From contig CAVVPN010000012.1 in assembly GCA_963750165.1 (NCBI GenBank), positions 1,254,142 to 1,318,141 on the forward strand: a DNA stretch of 64,000 nucleotides. The letters run 5' to 3'. The stretch is from an uncultured Gemmataceae bacterium. GTDB lineage: Bacteria; Planctomycetota; Planctomycetia; Gemmatales; Gemmataceae. Below are positions 41,861 through 52,181 of the stretch, one piece after another; within the stretch, counting starts at the first letter, position 1; the number at the start of each line of letters is the position of its first letter. Under the pieces are notes generated by a model. That model saw nothing but the letters and a program-made list of their open reading frames with translations. It had not been told where the DNA came from and did no database searches. The translations under genes and the position numbers were made by a program.

Positions 41861-44131
41861 CCGTTCAGCCTCGGCAGGCCGATGTCGAGCAGGATCACGT
41901 CCGGTCGGAACGCTTCGGCCAGCTCCAGCGCCTCCAACCCGTCGTGGGCGATGCGCGTGTCGTTGCCCAGCAGAGACAGCATCATGGACAGGCTGGTCGC
42001 CGCGTCCCGGTTGTCGTCCACGACCAGGACGCGGCGCCGCGGCCCCTGGGGGCGTACCTCCCGGGCCGGATCGGGAGACCAAGACGGCTCCGTGGTCATC
42101 GGCAGGCGCACGGTGAACTCACTGCCCTGCCCCGGCCCGTCACTGTGGGCCGCGACCGTGCCGCCGTGCATCTCCACCAACCCCTTGACCAGTGCCAGCC
42201 CGATGCCCAGCCCCCCCTGCGCGCGCTCCAGATTGGTTTCCACCTGCGAGAACAGGGCGAACAGCGAGGGCAGCGCTGCCACGGGAATGCCGATGCCCGA
42301 GTCGCGCACTGTCACCACGACCTCGGAACCGTCCAGCCGGGCCGACAGCACGATGCGGCCGCCCGGGTCGGTGTACTTGGCGGCATTGTTGAGCAGGTTC
42401 CAGAAGACCTGCGCCAGCCGGGTCAGGTCGGCGTTCAGGAAGACCGGCTGCGGCGGCAGCGCCACGCTAAGAGCCTGTCCCTTGGCGTTGAGGAGCGGCC
42501 GGACGGTCTCGACGGCGTTCTCGAGTACCGCGGCCAGGTTCACGCGGGTCCAGCGCAGCTCCAGCTTGTTGCTGGTAATGCGGCTCACGTCCAGCAGGTC
42601 GTCCACCAGGCGCACCAGCTGAATGACTTGCCGGTCCATCATGGCCTGGGCCTGCGCGGTTCGCCGGGTCGTCCGTCAGCGCCAGGGCTTGCAGGGCGGT
42701 ACGGATGGGGGCCAACGGATTTCGCAGCTCGTGAGCCAGCGTCGCCAGGAACTCGTCCTTGCGCCGATCCGCCTGGCGCAGTTCTTGCTCCGCCCGCTTC
42801 CGCGCTGTTATGTCCTGGCGCACCCCCACCAGGCGCACCGGCCGGCCCTGGTCGTCGCAGAAGACCTTGCCCTTGCCGAACAGCCAGCGCTCGCCGTCGT
42901 CCGTCGCGGCACTGCGGAACTCGACCTCGAACTCGGAACCGGTCGCCAGGGCGTCTTCGTAGGCCCGGCGAACCGCCGCACGGTCGTCGGGGTGGACGAG
43001 GGCGTCGAACCCTTCCTGGGAAGGCGGCACCGTCCCGGCGGGCAGGCCGTGCACCGGTTCGAAGTTGTCCGACCACCACATCTGGTTGGTGGCCGGACTC
43101 CACTCCCAGACGCCCATGCGGCCCGCCTCCAGGGCCAGGTGCAGCCGCTCCACGCTGTCGCGCACGGTCTTCTCCGCAGCCCGCCGCGCCGTCACGTCGC
43201 GGAAGACCAGGACGACACCGAGTGTCCCGCCGTCGTCTCGGATGGGAGCGGCGCTCTCCTCAATGGGTCGCCGCGTCCCGTCCCGGGCGACGATCGCCAT
43301 GTGGTGGGACAGGCCGGCCAGTTGGCCCTCGCGCAGCACCTGGACGACCGGGTTCTCGGCCGGTTCGCCGGTCTGCTCGTTGACGATGTGAAACACGTTC
43401 TCCAGGGGCCGCCCCTCGGCCTCGCCCAGGGGCCAGCCGGTCAGCTGCTCGGCCACCGGGTTGAGGAAGATCACCCGGCCCTGGGCGTCGGTGCAGACGA
43501 CCGCGTCGCCGATGCTCGCCAGGGTGATGCGGAACCACTCGTGCTGTTGCCGGACGGCCTCGGCCTGCTCCTCCGCCGCCCGGCGGGCCGCCGCCTCCTC
43601 CCGCAACCGCTGGGCGTCCGCCTCCGCCTGCTGCCGCTCGGTCAGGTCGCGCGTGATCTTGGAAAAGCCTCGCAGGTTCCCGGCTGGGTCGCGCAGGGCG
43701 GTCAGGACCACGCTGGCCCAGAAGCGGGAGCCGTCCTTGCGCACCCGCCAGCCCTCTTCCTTGTACGCTCCCTCGGCGGCGGCCGTCCGCAGCCCCTGCT
43801 CCGGCCGGCCCGCCTGGACCGCCTCGGGCGGGTAGAACAGCGCGAAGGACTGGCCGAGGACCTCCTCGGCCCGGTACTGCTTGATGCGCTCCGCCCCCGG
43901 GTTCCAGGAGGCGATGCGGCCGTCGGGCCCCAGCAGGTAGATGGCGTATTCCTTCGTACCCTCCACGAGCAGCCGGAAGCGCTCCTCACTGGCCCGTAGC
44001 TCCTCGATCTGTCGCTCCAGCTCGGCGTTGGCCTGTTTCAAAGCGCCCTCGGCCCTGACGCGAGCCGTCACCTCGCGCTCCAGTTCGGTTGTGTTGCGCA
44101 TGGTCAGGAGCCTCGACATGAATTCGAACAT
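41668..44131 (-). CDS. Multi-PAS hybrid histidine kinase with receiver; frameshift near 42655
   Basis: Three PAS domains ([11 protein letters not shown]), [29 protein letters not shown]. Confidence 0.88.
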
Positions 44132-44463
44132 CAACCGACCGCCGGCCGATGTATTGAACAAGACCACCGAGGTGGTCGCGCGGCACCATCAACACCCGGT
44201 CCTGCGCCGTTTCGCGAAGAACAAGCGATCATGAACCGGCGTAATCAGGTAAGTGATTCCCTCAGCCGTCATGGCCGGAGGACAGGGAAGGCCGCCTCTC
44301 GCAAGCGGGTGTGTAAGCAAGATCATTGTACTGCAAGCTCGGCAAGCCCGGTAGGGCCGCTGTTCAACGCGGCGCCGTTTCCGTAAACGAACCCTGGCCG
44401 GGCCGCCTCGGGCCGGCCGGCGGCGGCCGCCGCCCCCGTGTACGCCAACCCCTCCAGGATCGC

Positions 44464-45568
44464 ATGAAGATCACCCGCATCCGCGCCTACCGCGTGGACC
44501 TGCCGCTGCACGAGGGCAGTTACAAGTGGTCCGGCGGCAAGGCCGTCACTGTCTTCGACAGCACTGTGGTGCGCATCGACACCGACGCCGGCGTCGCGGG
44601 CTACGGTGAGGTCTGCCCGCTCGGCCCCTTCTATCTGCCCGCCTACGCCAGCGGCGCCCTGCGCGGGCATCGCCGAACTGGGGCCGCACCTGCTCGGCGA
44701 AAATCCCCTCGAATTGCAGAAGCTCAACCGCCGCATGGACGCCGCCCTGCAGGGCCACCCCTACGTCAAGTCCGCCCTGGACATGGCTTGCTGGGATCTC
44801 CTCGGCAAGGCCACCGGCCAGCCGGTCTGCACGCTGCTCGGCGGCCGCCACGGCGAAGATTTCGGTCTGTATCGGGCCATCTCGCAGGAGGCGCCGGAGG
44901 CCATGGCCGGCCGCGTCGCCAGCTACCGCGCCGAGGGCTACCGCCGCTTCCAGTTGAAGGTAGGCGGCGACCCGGCCGAGGACATCGAGCGCATCCGCGC
45001 CGCGGCGGCCCAGCTGCAACCGGGCGACCGCCTCATCGCCGACGCCAACACCGGCTGGCTCATGCACGACGCCCTGCGTGTGGTCCGGGCCGTGCGCGAT
45101 GTGGACGTGTACATCGAGCAGCCGTGCCGCAGTTACGAGGAGTGCCTGACGGTGCGCCGCCACACCGACCACCCGTTCGTGCTCGACGAGGTGATCGACT
45201 CGCTCGACGTGCTGCTGCGCGGCCACGCCGACCGGGCGATGGACGTGGTCAACCTCAAGATCAGCAAGCTCGGCGGCCTGACAAAGACGAAACAGGTTCG
45301 CGATCTGTGCGTGGCCCTGGGCGTGGCGCTGACGCTGGAGGACAGCTGGGGCGGCGACATCGTGACCGCGGCCATCGCTCACCTGGCGCACAGCACGCCG
45401 CCGGAGCTGCTGTTCACGGCCACCGACTTCAACAGCTATGTGACGGTCAGCAACGCCGAGGGGGCGCCGCGGCGCGTCCACGGCCGGCTGGCGGCGCCGG
45501 CGGTGCCCGGCCTGGGTGTGACGCCGCGCTGGGACGTGCTGGGCGCCGCGGTGGTGGATGTGGGGTGA
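44464..45568 (+). CDS. Enolase-superfamily (MR/MLE) enzyme, hydroxyproline dehydratase/epimerase-like; frameshift near 44657
   Basis: [51 protein letters not shown]. Confidence 0.8.
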
Positions 45569-47385: not shown

Positions 47386-47444
47386 TAAAACCTGAAAAGT
47401 GATTTTTGTTAGGGCGCGCGGCGCCCCAAATCACCTGGTTCGGG
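47384..47444 (+). other. attI-like integron site, copy 1
   Basis: cgtaaaacctgaaa...tgttagggcgcgc...gccccaaat-cacctg-GTTCGGG; direct repeat of 47593..47654. Confidence 0.6.
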
Positions 47445-47523
47445 CGCCCAGACAGCGCCGGCCGGTTCGGTGGGTGTCGGCTTGCCCTCTCCGGGCATTT
47501 CCGATAAAAAAAGTGCGCGCTTA

Positions 47524-47552
47524 TTGACTTTCGAGATTCGACCGATTACGCT
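47524..47552 (+). promoter_or_regulatory. Sigma70-type promoter (Pc-like) facing the cassettes
   Basis: TTGACT-17 bp-TACGCT. Confidence 0.65.
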
Positions 47553-47592
47553 CACCCGCGGGCGCTCCGCTCCGCGGGGGCTTGCTGGTGAA

Positions 47593-47654
47593 CGTAAAAC
47601 CTGAAACAGTAACCTTGTTAGGGCGCGCTGCGCGCCCTAATCACCTGGTTCGTG
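47593..47654 (+). other. attI-like integron site, copy 2 (crossover G/TTCGTG at 47648/47649)
   Basis: GCCCTAAT-CACCTG-GTTCGTG resembles the attI1 simple site; GTTCGTG is the exact complement of the downstream R'' box CACGAAC. Confidence 0.7.
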
Positions 47655-47675
47655 AGGGGAGCGGGGGGGCGTCGC

Positions 47676-48293
47676 ATGGGCAACAAGGCGTGGCTGACAA
47701 CGGCGGCTACGCGGCAGACCTACCCCAGCCTCCAAGAACCGGCTTACAACGCCGCCCGGCATTCCGTTGCCTGCTGCGATTGGGGTATCCCGCTGCTCTG
47801 GCTCCCACTGTTCCGGCCGTCGGACCTGCTCGTCGAGAGCGTGACCGTCGAGTGCGGCAAGACGTATCGTGACCCTGCGCCCGTAGTGGACACCCCAAGG
47901 GCGTTGGAAAGGCTGGCAGGAGCCGTGGCCCGGCTCGATGCGTTGTTCCGGGAGCAGGGCTCGGTCGCTCGGTACGCAGCCATGCTCCGTGAGGCAATCG
48001 CATCGACTGCCCGGCCCTTCGTCACCTTGGAAGCGGCGGCGCTGGCCGGGGCGGGCGCGCCAGAGGAGTTCTATCGAAACCTGGAGCGGGCATTGGCCTA
48101 CTTGGATCAGCCGGATAGCTACGAGGGGCGGCATGAGTTGCTCTACTTGACGCCTACAGTCAGCGAGCCAGAGATGCCATTCCCGAACCCCGAGGAAGTG
48201 GGGGAGGAGAGTGACATCGAGGGGATGGAGATGCTTCGGTTTCTGCTTGGCGAACGGTGGGAGCGACCTGTGCCCTGGGAACCGATGCGGTGA
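47676..48293 (+). CDS. Integron cassette hypothetical protein
   Basis: Single ORF between the attI-like site and an attC half-site. Confidence 0.7.
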   Translation: MGNKAWLTTAATRQTYPSLQEPAYNAARHSVACCDWGIPLLWLPLFRPSDLLVESVTVECGKTYRDPAPVVDTPRALERLAGAVARLDALFREQGSVARYAAMLREAIASTARPFVTLEAAALAGAGAPEEFYRNLERALAYLDQPDSYEGRHELLYLTPTVSEPEMPFPNPEEVGEESDIEGMEMLRFLLGERWERPVPWEPMR

Positions 48294-48329: not shown

Positions 48330-48363
48330 ACCCCCACACCGGAAGAAAAAGGAAGAAAAAGAG

Positions 48364-48638
48364 TGCCATGTGCCAATGAGATGACGCGGTATTTACGGAC
48401 GGTGTACGCCACCGCCCATTGACGGCTTCATCAAGGAGTCGCGGAGTAGCATTTGCAGTGCCACGAACCAGCCTCTCTCGTTGGTTTGATCACCGTCTCG
48501 CCATACTGGTATATCAGGGGAGTGACCCCACGGTGCCGTATCAGGCGTTGGTGATCCGAGAGAGCGCAAGCTTTTCCTAGGGTTCACCCCTTGGGGACAA
48601 AAGGCGTTCTCGGCTCGCGATCCCGCTCCGGCGGAGGT
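48364..48638 (-). ncRNA. Putative bridge/seek RNA region of the IS110 element
   Basis: About 275-bp structured non-coding region 3' of the transposase, with two 8/9 matches to the reconstructed circle junction. Confidence 0.6.
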
Positions 48639-50204
48639 CTACTCCCCTGACGCTGCTGATTGTACCGCGCCGACCCCCAGGCGCGCCAACACGATCGGCA
48701 GGATGTCCCCCAGCAACTGGGGGCCACGCCGATGACCGTCCTGGATCTTTTGCAACTCCTCGGCCAACGGCCTGGCCTCGGCGGCATGTTCGCGCGACGG
48801 GATTTGCCCGATGGCCGCTTGCAGGTCGCGCAGCACCTCGGCCATGCCCGTGTCGTGGTCGCGGTGGAAGGCCGTCAGCTTGTCGAGGATGTAATGGCGA
48901 CCCTGGATGCTGGGGTGGCGAAAGACCTGGCGGCCGGCCACCATCTGGAAGGCGATGCGGCAGAAGCGCAGCGCCACCTTGACGCGCGTGTGCCGCGGGT
49001 CCTTGCCCTGTGCCGCCCACTGCGTCGCCAACACCCCGAAGTGGTGGTTGCAGACGATCAGGTTGTCGGCGATGCCGAGGATGGCGGCGCGGAGGGAACG
49101 GTTGCAGTTGCGGACCAGCGGGCCGTTGGCTTTGTCCACTTGGTCACTCTGATAACGGGACGGTCGCAGGCCGGCGCGGCCGGTGATGGCCTTGGCGTTG
49201 GCGTAGTGTTCGATCGGCCCCATCTCGCCGGCGAAGTCGGCGGCGCTGACGACGTTGACGCCGGGGAAGGACAGCAGCAGCACGTAGGGCGTCTGCACCA
49301 GCCGGCCGGCGATGTCGCGTTCCAGGGCCAGAATTTCCTGGGTTTTTTGCTGGCGATCGTGGTAGTAAGGCCAGGGCAATGCGGCGGTGCTGCTCGGCGG
49401 CGACATCGCCCGGCGCGGCCTGGTCGGCCCAGTCGAGGACCGTTTGCACGGTGCGTTGCTGGAAGCGGATGCCGGCCTGACGCAGGGAGTGACAGAGGGT
49501 TGTCAATCCGGCCTCGCGCAGTTGGTCGGCGGTCGGGAAGTGGCGGAGCAAGTGCCAGGGGACGGGACTCTCCCAGAGCTTGTCGAAGCAGGCGGCGAAC
49601 CCGGGCAAGGCGGCTTCGAGGTGGTCGCGGATCTGGCAGTTGAGGGCGGCGCCTTTGCGGACGAGGTCGCGGCGTTGGCGGATGAGCAGGAGCAAGGAGG
49701 TCCAGGCCTCGTCGCGGGTGGCTTCGAGCAAGGCGCAGCCGGTGACGGTGGCGCGATGAATGGCGGCCAGGTCGGTGTCGTCGGTCTTGTTGCCGGGATC
49801 GACGGGTTGGCGATACTGCTTGGTGACGAAGGGATGGAGGATGCGGGTCTCGAAGCCGGCGGCGGCGAAGGTGCGTTGCACGATGCGGTGATAGCGGCCG
49901 GTGCGTTCGATGGCGACGAGGCCGTCGCGGAGCTGGTGCTCGGCGAAAGCTTGGCGGACCTGGGCGACGGCCGCGTCGAGGTCGGGGCGGTTGTGGGCGA
50001 CGGTCGTGGGTGGCATGCAGGACGCGGCCGTAGAAGTCGGCGAGGAGGAACTTGGAGCGTGCCTTGGCGCAGTCGAAGCAGACGATGCCGAAGTGTTCGG
50101 GCCCGACCCGCTGGACGCGGGGATGGAGCACGCCGTGGGGCTTGCCGAGGGAGGGTGCCGGACGACGGGACGAGGGACGGTTTGTGGGTACGAGAAGTGG
50201 CCAT
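48639..50204 (-). CDS. IS110 DEDD recombinase/transposase (several frameshifts)
   Basis: FGIVCFDCAK (D), IERTG (E), KTDDTD (DD), SFPGV, GLRPSRYQS (Ser). Confidence 0.88.
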
Positions 50205-50320
50205 GAGACCTGCCTCCGGTAAAAGAGAGAGGGCTCATCTCATTCTGGCAGCTGGCTCGTCGGAATGGGTTATTTCTTTGCTAAAACCCACATACCAGGG
50301 GACGCGGACATTTTTCTTGA

Positions 50321-50410
50321 CCCGAACCAGTCGTTGCACGTGACGGGCCATCTACGGTCAATCTAATAATATTTAGTCGAGCGGCCCGCACGTGAACTGA
50401 GTTGTTCGCC
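50321..50410 (+). other. Complete attC site (90 bp)
   Basis: R'' CCCGAAC, 5-bp spacer, L'' GTT[G]CACG, TG[A]CGGGCC/GGCCCGCA stem, L' CGTGAAC, 6-bp spacer, R' GTTCGCC; two extrahelical bases. Confidence 0.85.
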
Positions 50411-50721: not shown

Positions 50722-52181
50722 GGTTCTTCCGTTTTTAGGTGCAAGCGCCTGAGAAAATGGCCCGGAAGCCCGCCACCAGTTCCCGAATGTGGGCGATGGT
50801 CTGCCGCACCAGATCCTTGCCTCGGTTTAGGTCCAGGATCAACCGGCTCCACAGACTGTCCGCGGACTTCAGCCCGTAGGCACGCTTGACAATCACGCGC
50901 GCCTTGTTGTTGATCCCCTCCACTGGCCCACTCGTCTGCCGGCCCTCGAAGTAGTTCAGGATCTCGTCTTGCCAGGTCTCGAAGGTCACGATGAACTTCT
51001 CCATCGCCGGGAACTCCTCCAGGATGTCCAGCCACACCCCGGTCAGCCACCGTAGCGCCTGCCGCCGGTCCGTGGCCGTGTCGAAGATCTTCTGGAAGCG
51101 CACGCGGATCTCGTACAGCCGCCGCAGCCGGGGCAACTGCTCAAACAAGGCCTCCAGCTTCGCTTGCTCTGCCTTGGTCAGGTCCTTGGGGTTGCGGCGG
51201 AACTCCCACATCAACGAGCGAAATTCCTTCCGTTGCGCCTTCGTGAGCTTCTGCTTGTGGCCCCGCGTGATTTTTTTTCCGCGCCTGGTCCACGACCTCG
51301 TTGAACTTCTTGGCGACGTGGAAGCGGTCGATGACCGCCTGGGCGTTGGGCAGCAAGCCCCGACAAGCGGCGTGGAACGCCGGCCCCATGTCGGCCCGGT
51401 AGGTATGCACCTGCAGGCGCTGCGCCGCGGACAACTTCTCCAGGCACTGCTGCGCCGCCGCCGCGTCACGGCCTGCGGTCACCGCCAGCACTTCGGGCCG
51501 GTCGGGGTTGGTCAGGTCGGTCAGGATCGTCACGTAGAGCTTGTGCCGCTTCTTCAGGCTCAACTCGTCAATGCCCACGTCCTGGATCACGCGCTGGGGG
51601 TCGATCGTCTTGGCCTGGGTGTCGGCCAACTGGTTGCGGACGATCAGGCCGACCGTCTCCGCCGAGATGCCCAGGCGGCGGGCCACCTCCTCCTCGTTAC
51701 TGCCGATCAGCGCCCGCAAGACGTGCTGCTCGAAGCGGTAGGTGTAGCTCGTGTCCCGGCGCTTGAAGGGCGGGATCAGGTGTTGTCGGTGATGGCAGTG
51801 GGGGCAGCGGTGGAAAACCGGTTGGTAGATCCAGAAGCTCGGTTGGCCCCAGAGTTCCAGGTCGCGGACGACTTGCACCGTCTCCTTGAACTCCAGGTGC
51901 GCGTCCTCCTCGCGGCGGCAGCGGTCGCAGCGACAGCGGTTGGGCAAGGGCCAGGAGACTTCAAAGCCGTGGCCGTCGCCGTGGCGCTCGTAAGCCACGA
52001 TGGTGACGCCTTCCGGGAGATCCACGTCGATAGTGATGGTGGCCATGACCGTCCCTGACGAGCAAGCATCGAGAACCCCAGGGCCGGCCGACGCACGGCA
52101 CCTATCCAGAAATGTAAGCCCCGCACGCCGCCCAGAAAAAGCTCAAAAATCCAGGCACTCGCACTTTACCCCGGAAGAACC
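50722..52181 (-). mobile_element. ISL3-family insertion sequence
   Basis: Imperfect ~30-bp TIRs ggttcttccg...gtgcaagcgcctg / ggttcttccg...gtgcgagtgcctg. Confidence 0.85.
50735..52046 (-). CDS. ISL3 transposase, -1 shift at an A8 tract (51271-51278)
   Basis: Zn finger CDRC/CPHC, VGIDE, ADMG, IDRFHV, TSGPVEGINNK..KRAYG. Confidence 0.88.

Follow-up and report, generated by a model that had tools for sequence, protein, structure and literature searches.

The region at 48360-50298 of the window (the whole stretch of 64,000 nucleotides analysed here) is very probably a damaged copy of a planctomycete IS110-family bridge-recombinase element. Comparison with related elements shows its ends, a CT core, a conserved predicted two-loop RNA fold and four guides in the order found in IS621. 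The mechanism was already described in 2024; the branch to which this copy belongs differs by its unusually long enzyme.

Element boundaries and recombinase

In the sense of the gene, which lies on the minus strand of the window, the element measures 1937 bp with one core and is made up of a left end of 92 nt (50205-50296), the gene (50204-48639) and a right end of 277 nt; in related elements the left end spans 79-155 nt and the right end 273-372 nt. The core, AG on the plus strand and CT in gene sense, is duplicated at 48360-61 and 50297-98. Relatives start with CT-GGTATG and finish with ATGGCACT-CT, after which their flanks diverge, so that the second core lies at 48360-61 and the bases at 48362-63 are the last two of the element. 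A reading made from the window alone, without database searches (the sequence-only reading), had taken the AG dinucleotides at 48362-63 and 50297-98 as the ends; both exist and the latter is a core, but the former lies 2 nt off. The empty site, GAAGAAAA-AG-GGGACGCGGACATTTTTCTTGA, is present uninterrupted twice in the same genome (G000, C12:1093156 and C12:288646), and one joined right-end/left-end junction, at locus L079, carries both of the extra bases, although this may be a tandem copy. Since the empty sites and this junction place the left core at 48360-61, the circle junction would read acatacc-AG-agtgccatg and the empty site gaagaaaa-AG-gggacgcgg, in place of the acatacc-AG-tgccatg (which lacks the two extra bases) and gaaaaag-AG- proposed earlier. 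A short core at both ends, the absence of terminal inverted repeats and a specific target are all as in the IS110 family.

The core at the left-end junction (50297-50298, minus strand) is CT in 88 of the 89 parsed left junctions and GT in one, a count to be read with the fact that the anchor motif of the parser favours CT, the invariance of the core and of the right donor being partly built in by motif-based junction anchors. The core at the right-end junction (48360-48361) was placed by empty sites and relatives, and the 2-nt core of the sequence-only reading stands, relatives having CT at both ends. Comparison with relatives gives the right donor arm, GGTATG, within the left end, and the left donor arm, CATGGCACT (48362-48370), at the terminus of the right end. 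Outside the element, the empty sites define the right target arm TTTTCTTC (48352-48359) and, together with motif counts in the genome, the left target arm (50299-50321), a REP-like motif (AAAA-AG-GGGAC on the plus strand); all these arms are given on the minus strand. The left end also contains GGAGG (50213-17) and a TG..A.AAT motif (50242-50), possibly a -10 box, which is found in 33 of 37 relatives of at least 75% identity and in 39 of 98 overall. The promoter and terminator scan found no sigma-70 consensus promoter and a single terminator-like site, inside the gene and at chance level.

The gene (48639-50204, minus strand) encodes a DEDD recombinase, matching PF01548 (E 1.7e-14) followed by PF02371 (E 3.2e-10), the arrangement that defines the IS110 family, as the sequence-only reading had proposed. 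In numbering of the protein P0002, D44, E99, D141, D144 and S352 are conserved in at least 90% of 44 sequences; the motifs of the catalytic residues are readable in the broken frames of the window, and the serine motif is G..P...QSD, not SG. P0002 matches NF033542 at E 1e-30 and 107 bits, under the 140-bit cut-off of that model. Among 5996 candidate proteins, 1824 passed E 0.001, and 280 clusters (50% identity) of relatives passed 1e-30, intact relatives being mostly of 520 aa. The branch is present in 18 of 200 genomes of the family and 27 of 400 of the class, and a query with the C-terminal part found it in 2 of 400 genomes of the phylum. Titled records of the branch are mostly from Planctomycetota, 3 of 31 being from other phyla. 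A search of viral contigs found no relative of the element, and none of 35 left-end pattern matches there had a target-like flank. In plasmids, 577 records matched, none covering 80% of the query; the nearest annotated plasmid matches are IS110 transposases, 20-30% identical, the top four from Actinobacteria.

The ten best structural matches of the predicted fold of P0002 (pLDDT 87) are to IS621 and ISCro4 (E 2e-10 to 8e-9). In the model, the coiled coil carries a helical insert (about 199-268) and there are four further helices towards the C-terminus (438-507), in which K441 and E475 are invariant, so that the long C-terminal extension noticed in the sequence-only reading is borne out both by conserved residues and by the predicted structure. 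When the extension was folded alone from P0244 (pLDDT 74), Foldseek returned no match under E 0.001, the best VIA match (Z 7.7) was to generic helical repeats, and the Atlas matches were without Pfam. These searches establish neither a new fold nor a function, and we describe the predicted structure as a conserved four-helix extension of no recognised fold.

As assembled, the window copy would yield no full-length enzyme. Single extra bases near 50180, 50018 and 49367 interrupt a frame that is intact, at 520 aa, in relatives; the three frameshifts are seen against seven intact relatives, the first being blurred by adjacent gaps in three of them. The search of the genome turned up no further copy of the gene. 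The breaks could be assembly errors, the copy being intact in the cell, a reading that concerns the status of this copy and not the mechanism, and to which we give somewhat less than an even chance. Near-identical repeats within the assembly differ by 1.0 gap per kb and ordinary genes nearby also appear split, but the copies of two other IS elements differ by only 0-2 gaps per 1.4-1.5 kb, rpoB is intact in the same assembly, and in the window copy 1.9 kb contain three gene frameshifts together with a missing base in an RNA stem. Elsewhere in the window, an enolase-like gene (44326-45568) and a PAS histidine kinase (42467-44167), as we take them to be, look frameshifted and may be assembly errors. 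An ISL3 transposase (50735-52046) occupies two frames, split at an A run, and the same split recurs on C11, in a near-identical full copy, and on C12, in an interrupted one.

Predicted bridge RNA and guides

Downstream of the stop codon lie two modules that share one plan, ACGCC-left guide-hairpin-right guide-NN-UGGCG; a long stem connects them and an outer stem encloses the whole. We infer from the alignment a bridge RNA of about 160 nt (48462-48619, minus strand, as for all RNA features below) in which the target loop precedes the donor loop, as is standard for IS621, and which is closed by the outer stem 48612-19/48462-69. The putative target-binding loop spans 48565-48608, and its closing stem is without one base near 48570 in the window: the target-loop pair 23-68 is retained in 47 of 48 alignment rows, the window row having the gap. 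The putative donor-binding loop (48499-48549) sits on the long stem 48550-64/48473-94. RNAalifold recovers both loops from an alignment of 48 sequences, namely the window and every second of 93 RNAs under 190 nt. In the scored structure, 92.4% of cells are paired, versus 86.4% in shuffled and 43-53% in slid controls, with the proviso that the structure was derived from the same sequences, which favours it over the slid control. Both sides have changed in 17 of the 35 pairs, and the outer stem is weaker (71% paired). The long-range pairings ctctctcg/cgagagag and gatcacc/ggtgatc pointed out in the sequence-only reading exist and are conserved with compensatory changes. The single-sequence fold of the right end is weak (z -1.63), the structure being carried by the alignment, and Rfam gave no match to the right end at E 1. 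Of the 24 sequencing runs checked, 21 had small shares (at most 0.14), and the four that were aligned gave contigs of relatives throughout.

Guides were read from 165 loci with the 3' end of the gene; RNA motifs that take no account of the target parsed 140 of them, and 25 stayed unparsed. The parsed loci gave 118 distinct element-site rows, reduced to a single row per RNA for 107 distinct RNAs; L048, whose end was misparsed, and L079, the junction, were left out, and the right target guide of the window was shifted by the one base missing from its stem. Covariation was judged against 2000 permutations, with 85-92 related RNAs per guide. In the window, the left target guide UUUUGUCCCC (48593-48602) would form six Watson-Crick pairs and a wobble with the target, and the right target guide GGAAAAG (48571-48577) seven pairs, one of them a wobble; the left donor guide ACGGCACC (48532-48539) tracks the donor end, and the right donor guide UACCAG (48506-48511) has near-invariant matches.

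Across relatives, the left target guide scores 507 matches to the flank (permutation mean 393, maximum 424, n = 85) and the right target guide 539 (mean 414, maximum 443, n = 89), the flank at +1 agreeing with all 13 non-consensus right target guides. The left donor guide scores 574 matches to the element end (mean 479, maximum 497, n = 92) and, at two positions, agrees with the donor in every non-consensus row (30 of 30 and 27 of 27). A wrong-loop control is at chance (294 versus 300). Kinship was handled by disjoint nearest-neighbour pairs on a tree of 95 proteins, among which double changes are Watson-Crick matched in 27 of 41 cases for the left target guide, 33 of 53 for the right target guide and 7 of 7 for the left donor guide, versus 3 of 29 and 4 of 27 in wrong-arm controls of the same test. 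The right donor guide is almost invariant (538 versus 534 by permutation), so its role rests on conservation: it matches in 87-89 of 89 rows from the core to +3, in 74 at +4, 21 at +5 and 3 at +6. The 9-mer AUAUACCAG, singled out in the sequence-only reading as a donor guide, is indeed present and is this guide, of which only the UACCAG part is conserved. Two of its weaker target-guide candidates (48571-78 and 48593-98) turned out to be the true target guides and the third (48516-21) part of a hairpin. As judged from these alignments, the target and donor loops covary with the target and with the element ends, as in the IS110 family, and an RNA-guided recombinase with a downstream-encoded RNA, as predicted earlier, is thereby supported.

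The pairing is not perfect. Target matches fade beyond -3 (left target guide, 59 of 85 at -5 and 57 of 85 at -4), one-base slips are common, and many insertions fit the left target guide poorly or with such a slip. The left donor guide mismatches at position 2 in 89 of 92 rows and at position 8 in 48 of 92; 79 donors carry an additional base ahead of the core, and opposite it the guide has C in 45 of them, T in 32 and G in 2. Handshake pairing is at or below chance in all four registers (16/93, 19/93, 24/86 and 4/86). At L066, the core is GT and both right guides end in AC. The right guides of L066, L065 and L125 point to a GT core, and L141 and L149 have an altered right donor guide, the five together amounting to natural donor-side reprogramming.

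A short donor pairing (about 5+6 nt), imperfect beside the core, in an RNA located 3' of the gene, would also be compatible with use as a seekRNA, in which the cell would rely on a short target-loop RNA only and leave recognition of the ends mostly to the protein. Such use has been proposed for IS1111 elements, and in CazIS110-1 a target-loop-only RNA is reported, in the part of 10.1101/2025.10.25.684509 at hand, to make up 90.4% of transcripts. We consider this improbable here: the donor loop appears to be under selection, because the left donor guide covaries with the element end at both non-consensus positions and in all the pairs of the kinship test, and the 11-13 bp subterminal repeat is absent.

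Target repeat and integron context

The target, already suspected of being repeat-like, is a REP-like motif. G[TA]CCCCTTT occurs 108 times in the genome, 21 of the 108 with an inverted partner within 150 nt, and GTCCCCTTTT occurs 24 times versus 5.8 expected. REP sequences around RAYT genes are arranged as inverted pairs. Among four Y1 transposase matches in the genome, two lie between inverted pairs of the target motif or a close relative of it, a third comes with one copy and the fourth with none. Y1 (RAYT-like) genes adjoin copies of the target motif at C4:530805, C11:134093 and C12:61001.

An integron attC-like site (50322-50408, plus strand; hairpin z -2.76) closes a probable gene cassette, whose ORF (47652-48293) has no NCBIfam match; these are the lone cassette-like ORF and attC in the window. 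The attC-like pattern has 74 copies in the genome, some by chance, 40 of which lie in one array on C4 that adjoins an integron integrase (TIGR02249, 465 bits). The element is inserted 22 nt outside the attC-like site and 10 of the 108 target-motif sites of the genome adjoin an attC-like repeat, which might suggest that attC sites are what it targets. We hold this to be very improbable, as a search pattern built from the attC of this genome places an attC-like start in the 120 nt beyond the left end at only 2 of 80 insertion sites, and the guides fit the REP-like motif, not attC; it is this rarity of attC-like neighbours that identifies the REP-like motif as the target. Insertion inside attC, the habit of the IS1111-attC group, was not seen for this element.

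Three further observations were made in this context. The integron on C4, at about 1.10-1.20 Mb (L195:3087-4412), is chromosomal and has a 441-aa integrase with a duplicated N-terminal part. A second IS110 element of the genome, with a 443-aa open frame in two copies and a long 5' non-coding end, is found inside attC at the same position in three copies (C3:2408521, C4:1180667 and C4:1187154). Upstream of the cassette ORF (window 47400-47650), a sequence of about 60 nt (CGTAAAACCTGAAA...TTGTTAGGGCGCG...AATCACCTGGTTCG) is present twice, about 200 nt apart.

Relation to known systems, and element footprints

As IS621 and ISCro4 (IS622) are described in the accessible parts of the reports (PMC11208160; PMC11208158; PDB 8wt6-9, 9t56), the branch shares with them the DEDD and serine residues, the CT core, a REP target, the best structural match, a subterminal repeat of about 3 nt, and two simple internal loops, target then donor, with the left guide first. 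It differs from IS621, on the same sources, in having the RNA 3' rather than 5' of the gene, an enzyme of 520 instead of about 326 aa (14-16% identity), longer right guides (6-7 nt versus 4) and shorter left guides. It differs further in a helical insert of about 70 aa in the coiled coil and a C-terminal extension of about 90 aa, in the extra T before the core of most donors, and in the lack of handshake pairing in the simple register. The layout put forward in the sequence-only reading, with donor guides AUAUACCAG then CGUGGCACU, a donor read in reverse and non-standard loops, is scarcely tenable: both 9-mers fit the window ends at 8/9 with a wobble, but the boundary used was 2 nt off, the donor is followed almost perfectly by a different 8-mer, which lies in a symmetric loop, and CGUGGCACU, which is indeed present but is no conserved guide, varies freely among 27 relatives with 78% identity or more (4-8 of 9 matches to the donor arm, median 6) and overlaps a covarying stem, its first four bases lying within the outer stem. 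The test that this reading had itself named, the boundaries of other copies and the covariation of the 9-mers, went against it; the donor has the normal orientation, and the loops and guides follow each other as in IS621.

As far as the text of PMC11208160 and PMC11187229 goes, the RNA usually lies 5' of the gene in the IS110 group and 3' of it in the IS1111 group, though exceptions exist. The branch resembles the IS1111 group (ISEc11, ISPa11, ISKpn4; PMC11187229, text available in part) in its long downstream non-coding end and short left end. It departs from that group in its subterminal repeats (mode 3 nt instead of 7-17, usually 11-13, bp; perfect repeats are of 3 nt in 39 of 80 elements, of 7 nt in 2 and in none longer), in the IS110-type guide order, with the bottom-strand guide before the top-strand guide, and in an enzyme far above 330-350 aa. 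The repeat, absent or of the 2-3 bp type, and the guide order are those of the IS110 group; a long non-coding end is usually 5' in that group, a tendency with known exceptions and not a strict criterion. In the same partly available source, the branch is like the downstream-RNA exceptions of the IS110 group, which have a 3' RNA and lack long repeats, and like the IS110 subgroup of 395-455 aa, which has a long variable region, whereas its 520 aa exceed the reported range of 315-455 aa. On these features, the branch appears to work like IS621 and to have neither the repeats nor the guide order of IS1111. A literature search found neither the branch nor its C-terminal domain described; a description may exist in supplements or in subscription papers. 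Related work includes 86 RNA (covariance) models (10.64898/2026.10.21.760802, as far as its available text goes) and three reports accessible in part (PMC13626964, PMC12288879, 10.1101/2025.05.14.653916).

By analogy with IS621, the RNA would be made with or after the gene transcript and would bind a recombinase tetramer. The first loop would pair with both target strands, over about 6+7 nt of G[AT]CCC-CT-TTT[CG], and the second with the joined ends, over about 5+6 nt of ATGGCACT-CT-GGTA; the DEDD residues and the conserved serine would cut and rejoin at CT, and the element would move via a circle or by direct strand transfer. The target being a host REP-like repeat, insertions would fall between genes.

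Ends of the element are also found apart from the gene. In G419, ten left ends continue into the gene; in G419, G512 and G543 together, 11 of 27 left-end pattern matches are gene-less fragments (one further match is not a left end), two of which, 67-nt copies in G512, stand in tandem before a full element. The window's own genome has two such fragments (C3:2678035-2678105 and C11:878553, the latter split by another IS). All 13 left-end footprints of these four genomes follow a target-like arm. A breakpoint could be computed cleanly for 11 of them; CT lies within 3 nt of it in 9 (background 25%) and, in the other two, one base beyond that, as part of a shared CTTT. A further two footprints end at CT by eye. 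The footprints (G419 L208, L222; G512 L198, L201, L204, L218, L213/L210; G543 L197, L206, L215) are 14-110 nt long and most run into T-rich, target-like sequence. Right-end remnants of about 16-90 nt also exist, seven among the 30 of 47 matches listed (G543 L248; G512 L226, L230, L237, L240, L243; G419 L250). Those of L248 and L243 have the right end after an intact target arm and CT, and that of L250 has its end hairpin between A and T runs, like a terminator. At G419 L232, L241 and L244, gene-less cassettes keep the last 40 or so codons, the whole RNA and the right end; they have a different left target guide and a shared unrelated sequence in front, and are possibly non-autonomous elements.

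Such footprints would arise if an internal half-match recombined with the right junction, or by one-ended transfer followed by repair; ordinary deletion at short shared sequences might also yield them, given that right-end remnants occur as well. One-sided recognition of CT, as in the half-match and direct-transfer reactions described in the accessible parts of recent reports (10.64898/2026.08.31.748434; 10.1101/2025.10.25.684509; 10.64898/2026.08.14.744561), would explain them, although those reports concern in vitro products, off-target insertions, partial circles and expansions, whereas the footprints here are chromosomal. One might speculate that the branch is a distinct variant, in which the four-helix C-terminal domain changes the way the RNA or the ends are held and in which an internal CT of the left end often recombines with the right junction, or only the left junction is transferred; we regard this combined proposal as possible but rather unlikely.

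The element is a well-supported new member among the IS110 bridge-RNA elements, on its own unsurprising to a specialist, and with the surprising layout of the sequence-only reading gone, the leads of the branch are its extra C-terminal domain and its footprints. The window copy is a poor starting point, and intact relatives exist. The value lies in a well-resolved, naturally reprogrammed branch with more than 100 RNA variants with readable guides, in a 3' RNA whose loops resemble those of IS621, in an additional protein domain, and in right guides that are naturally of 6-7 nt, a length that raised the specificity of IS621 when engineered, according to the accessible text of PMC11208160 and 10.64898/2026.08.31.748434. 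The footprints could open the half-match and cut-out questions to the study of natural sequences. If the branch is indeed such a variant, its footprints of 14-110 nt would be re-targetable, as the tandem 67-nt copies of G512 may illustrate, would keep a possible outward promoter, and would form a natural chromosomal record of half-match bridge recombination.
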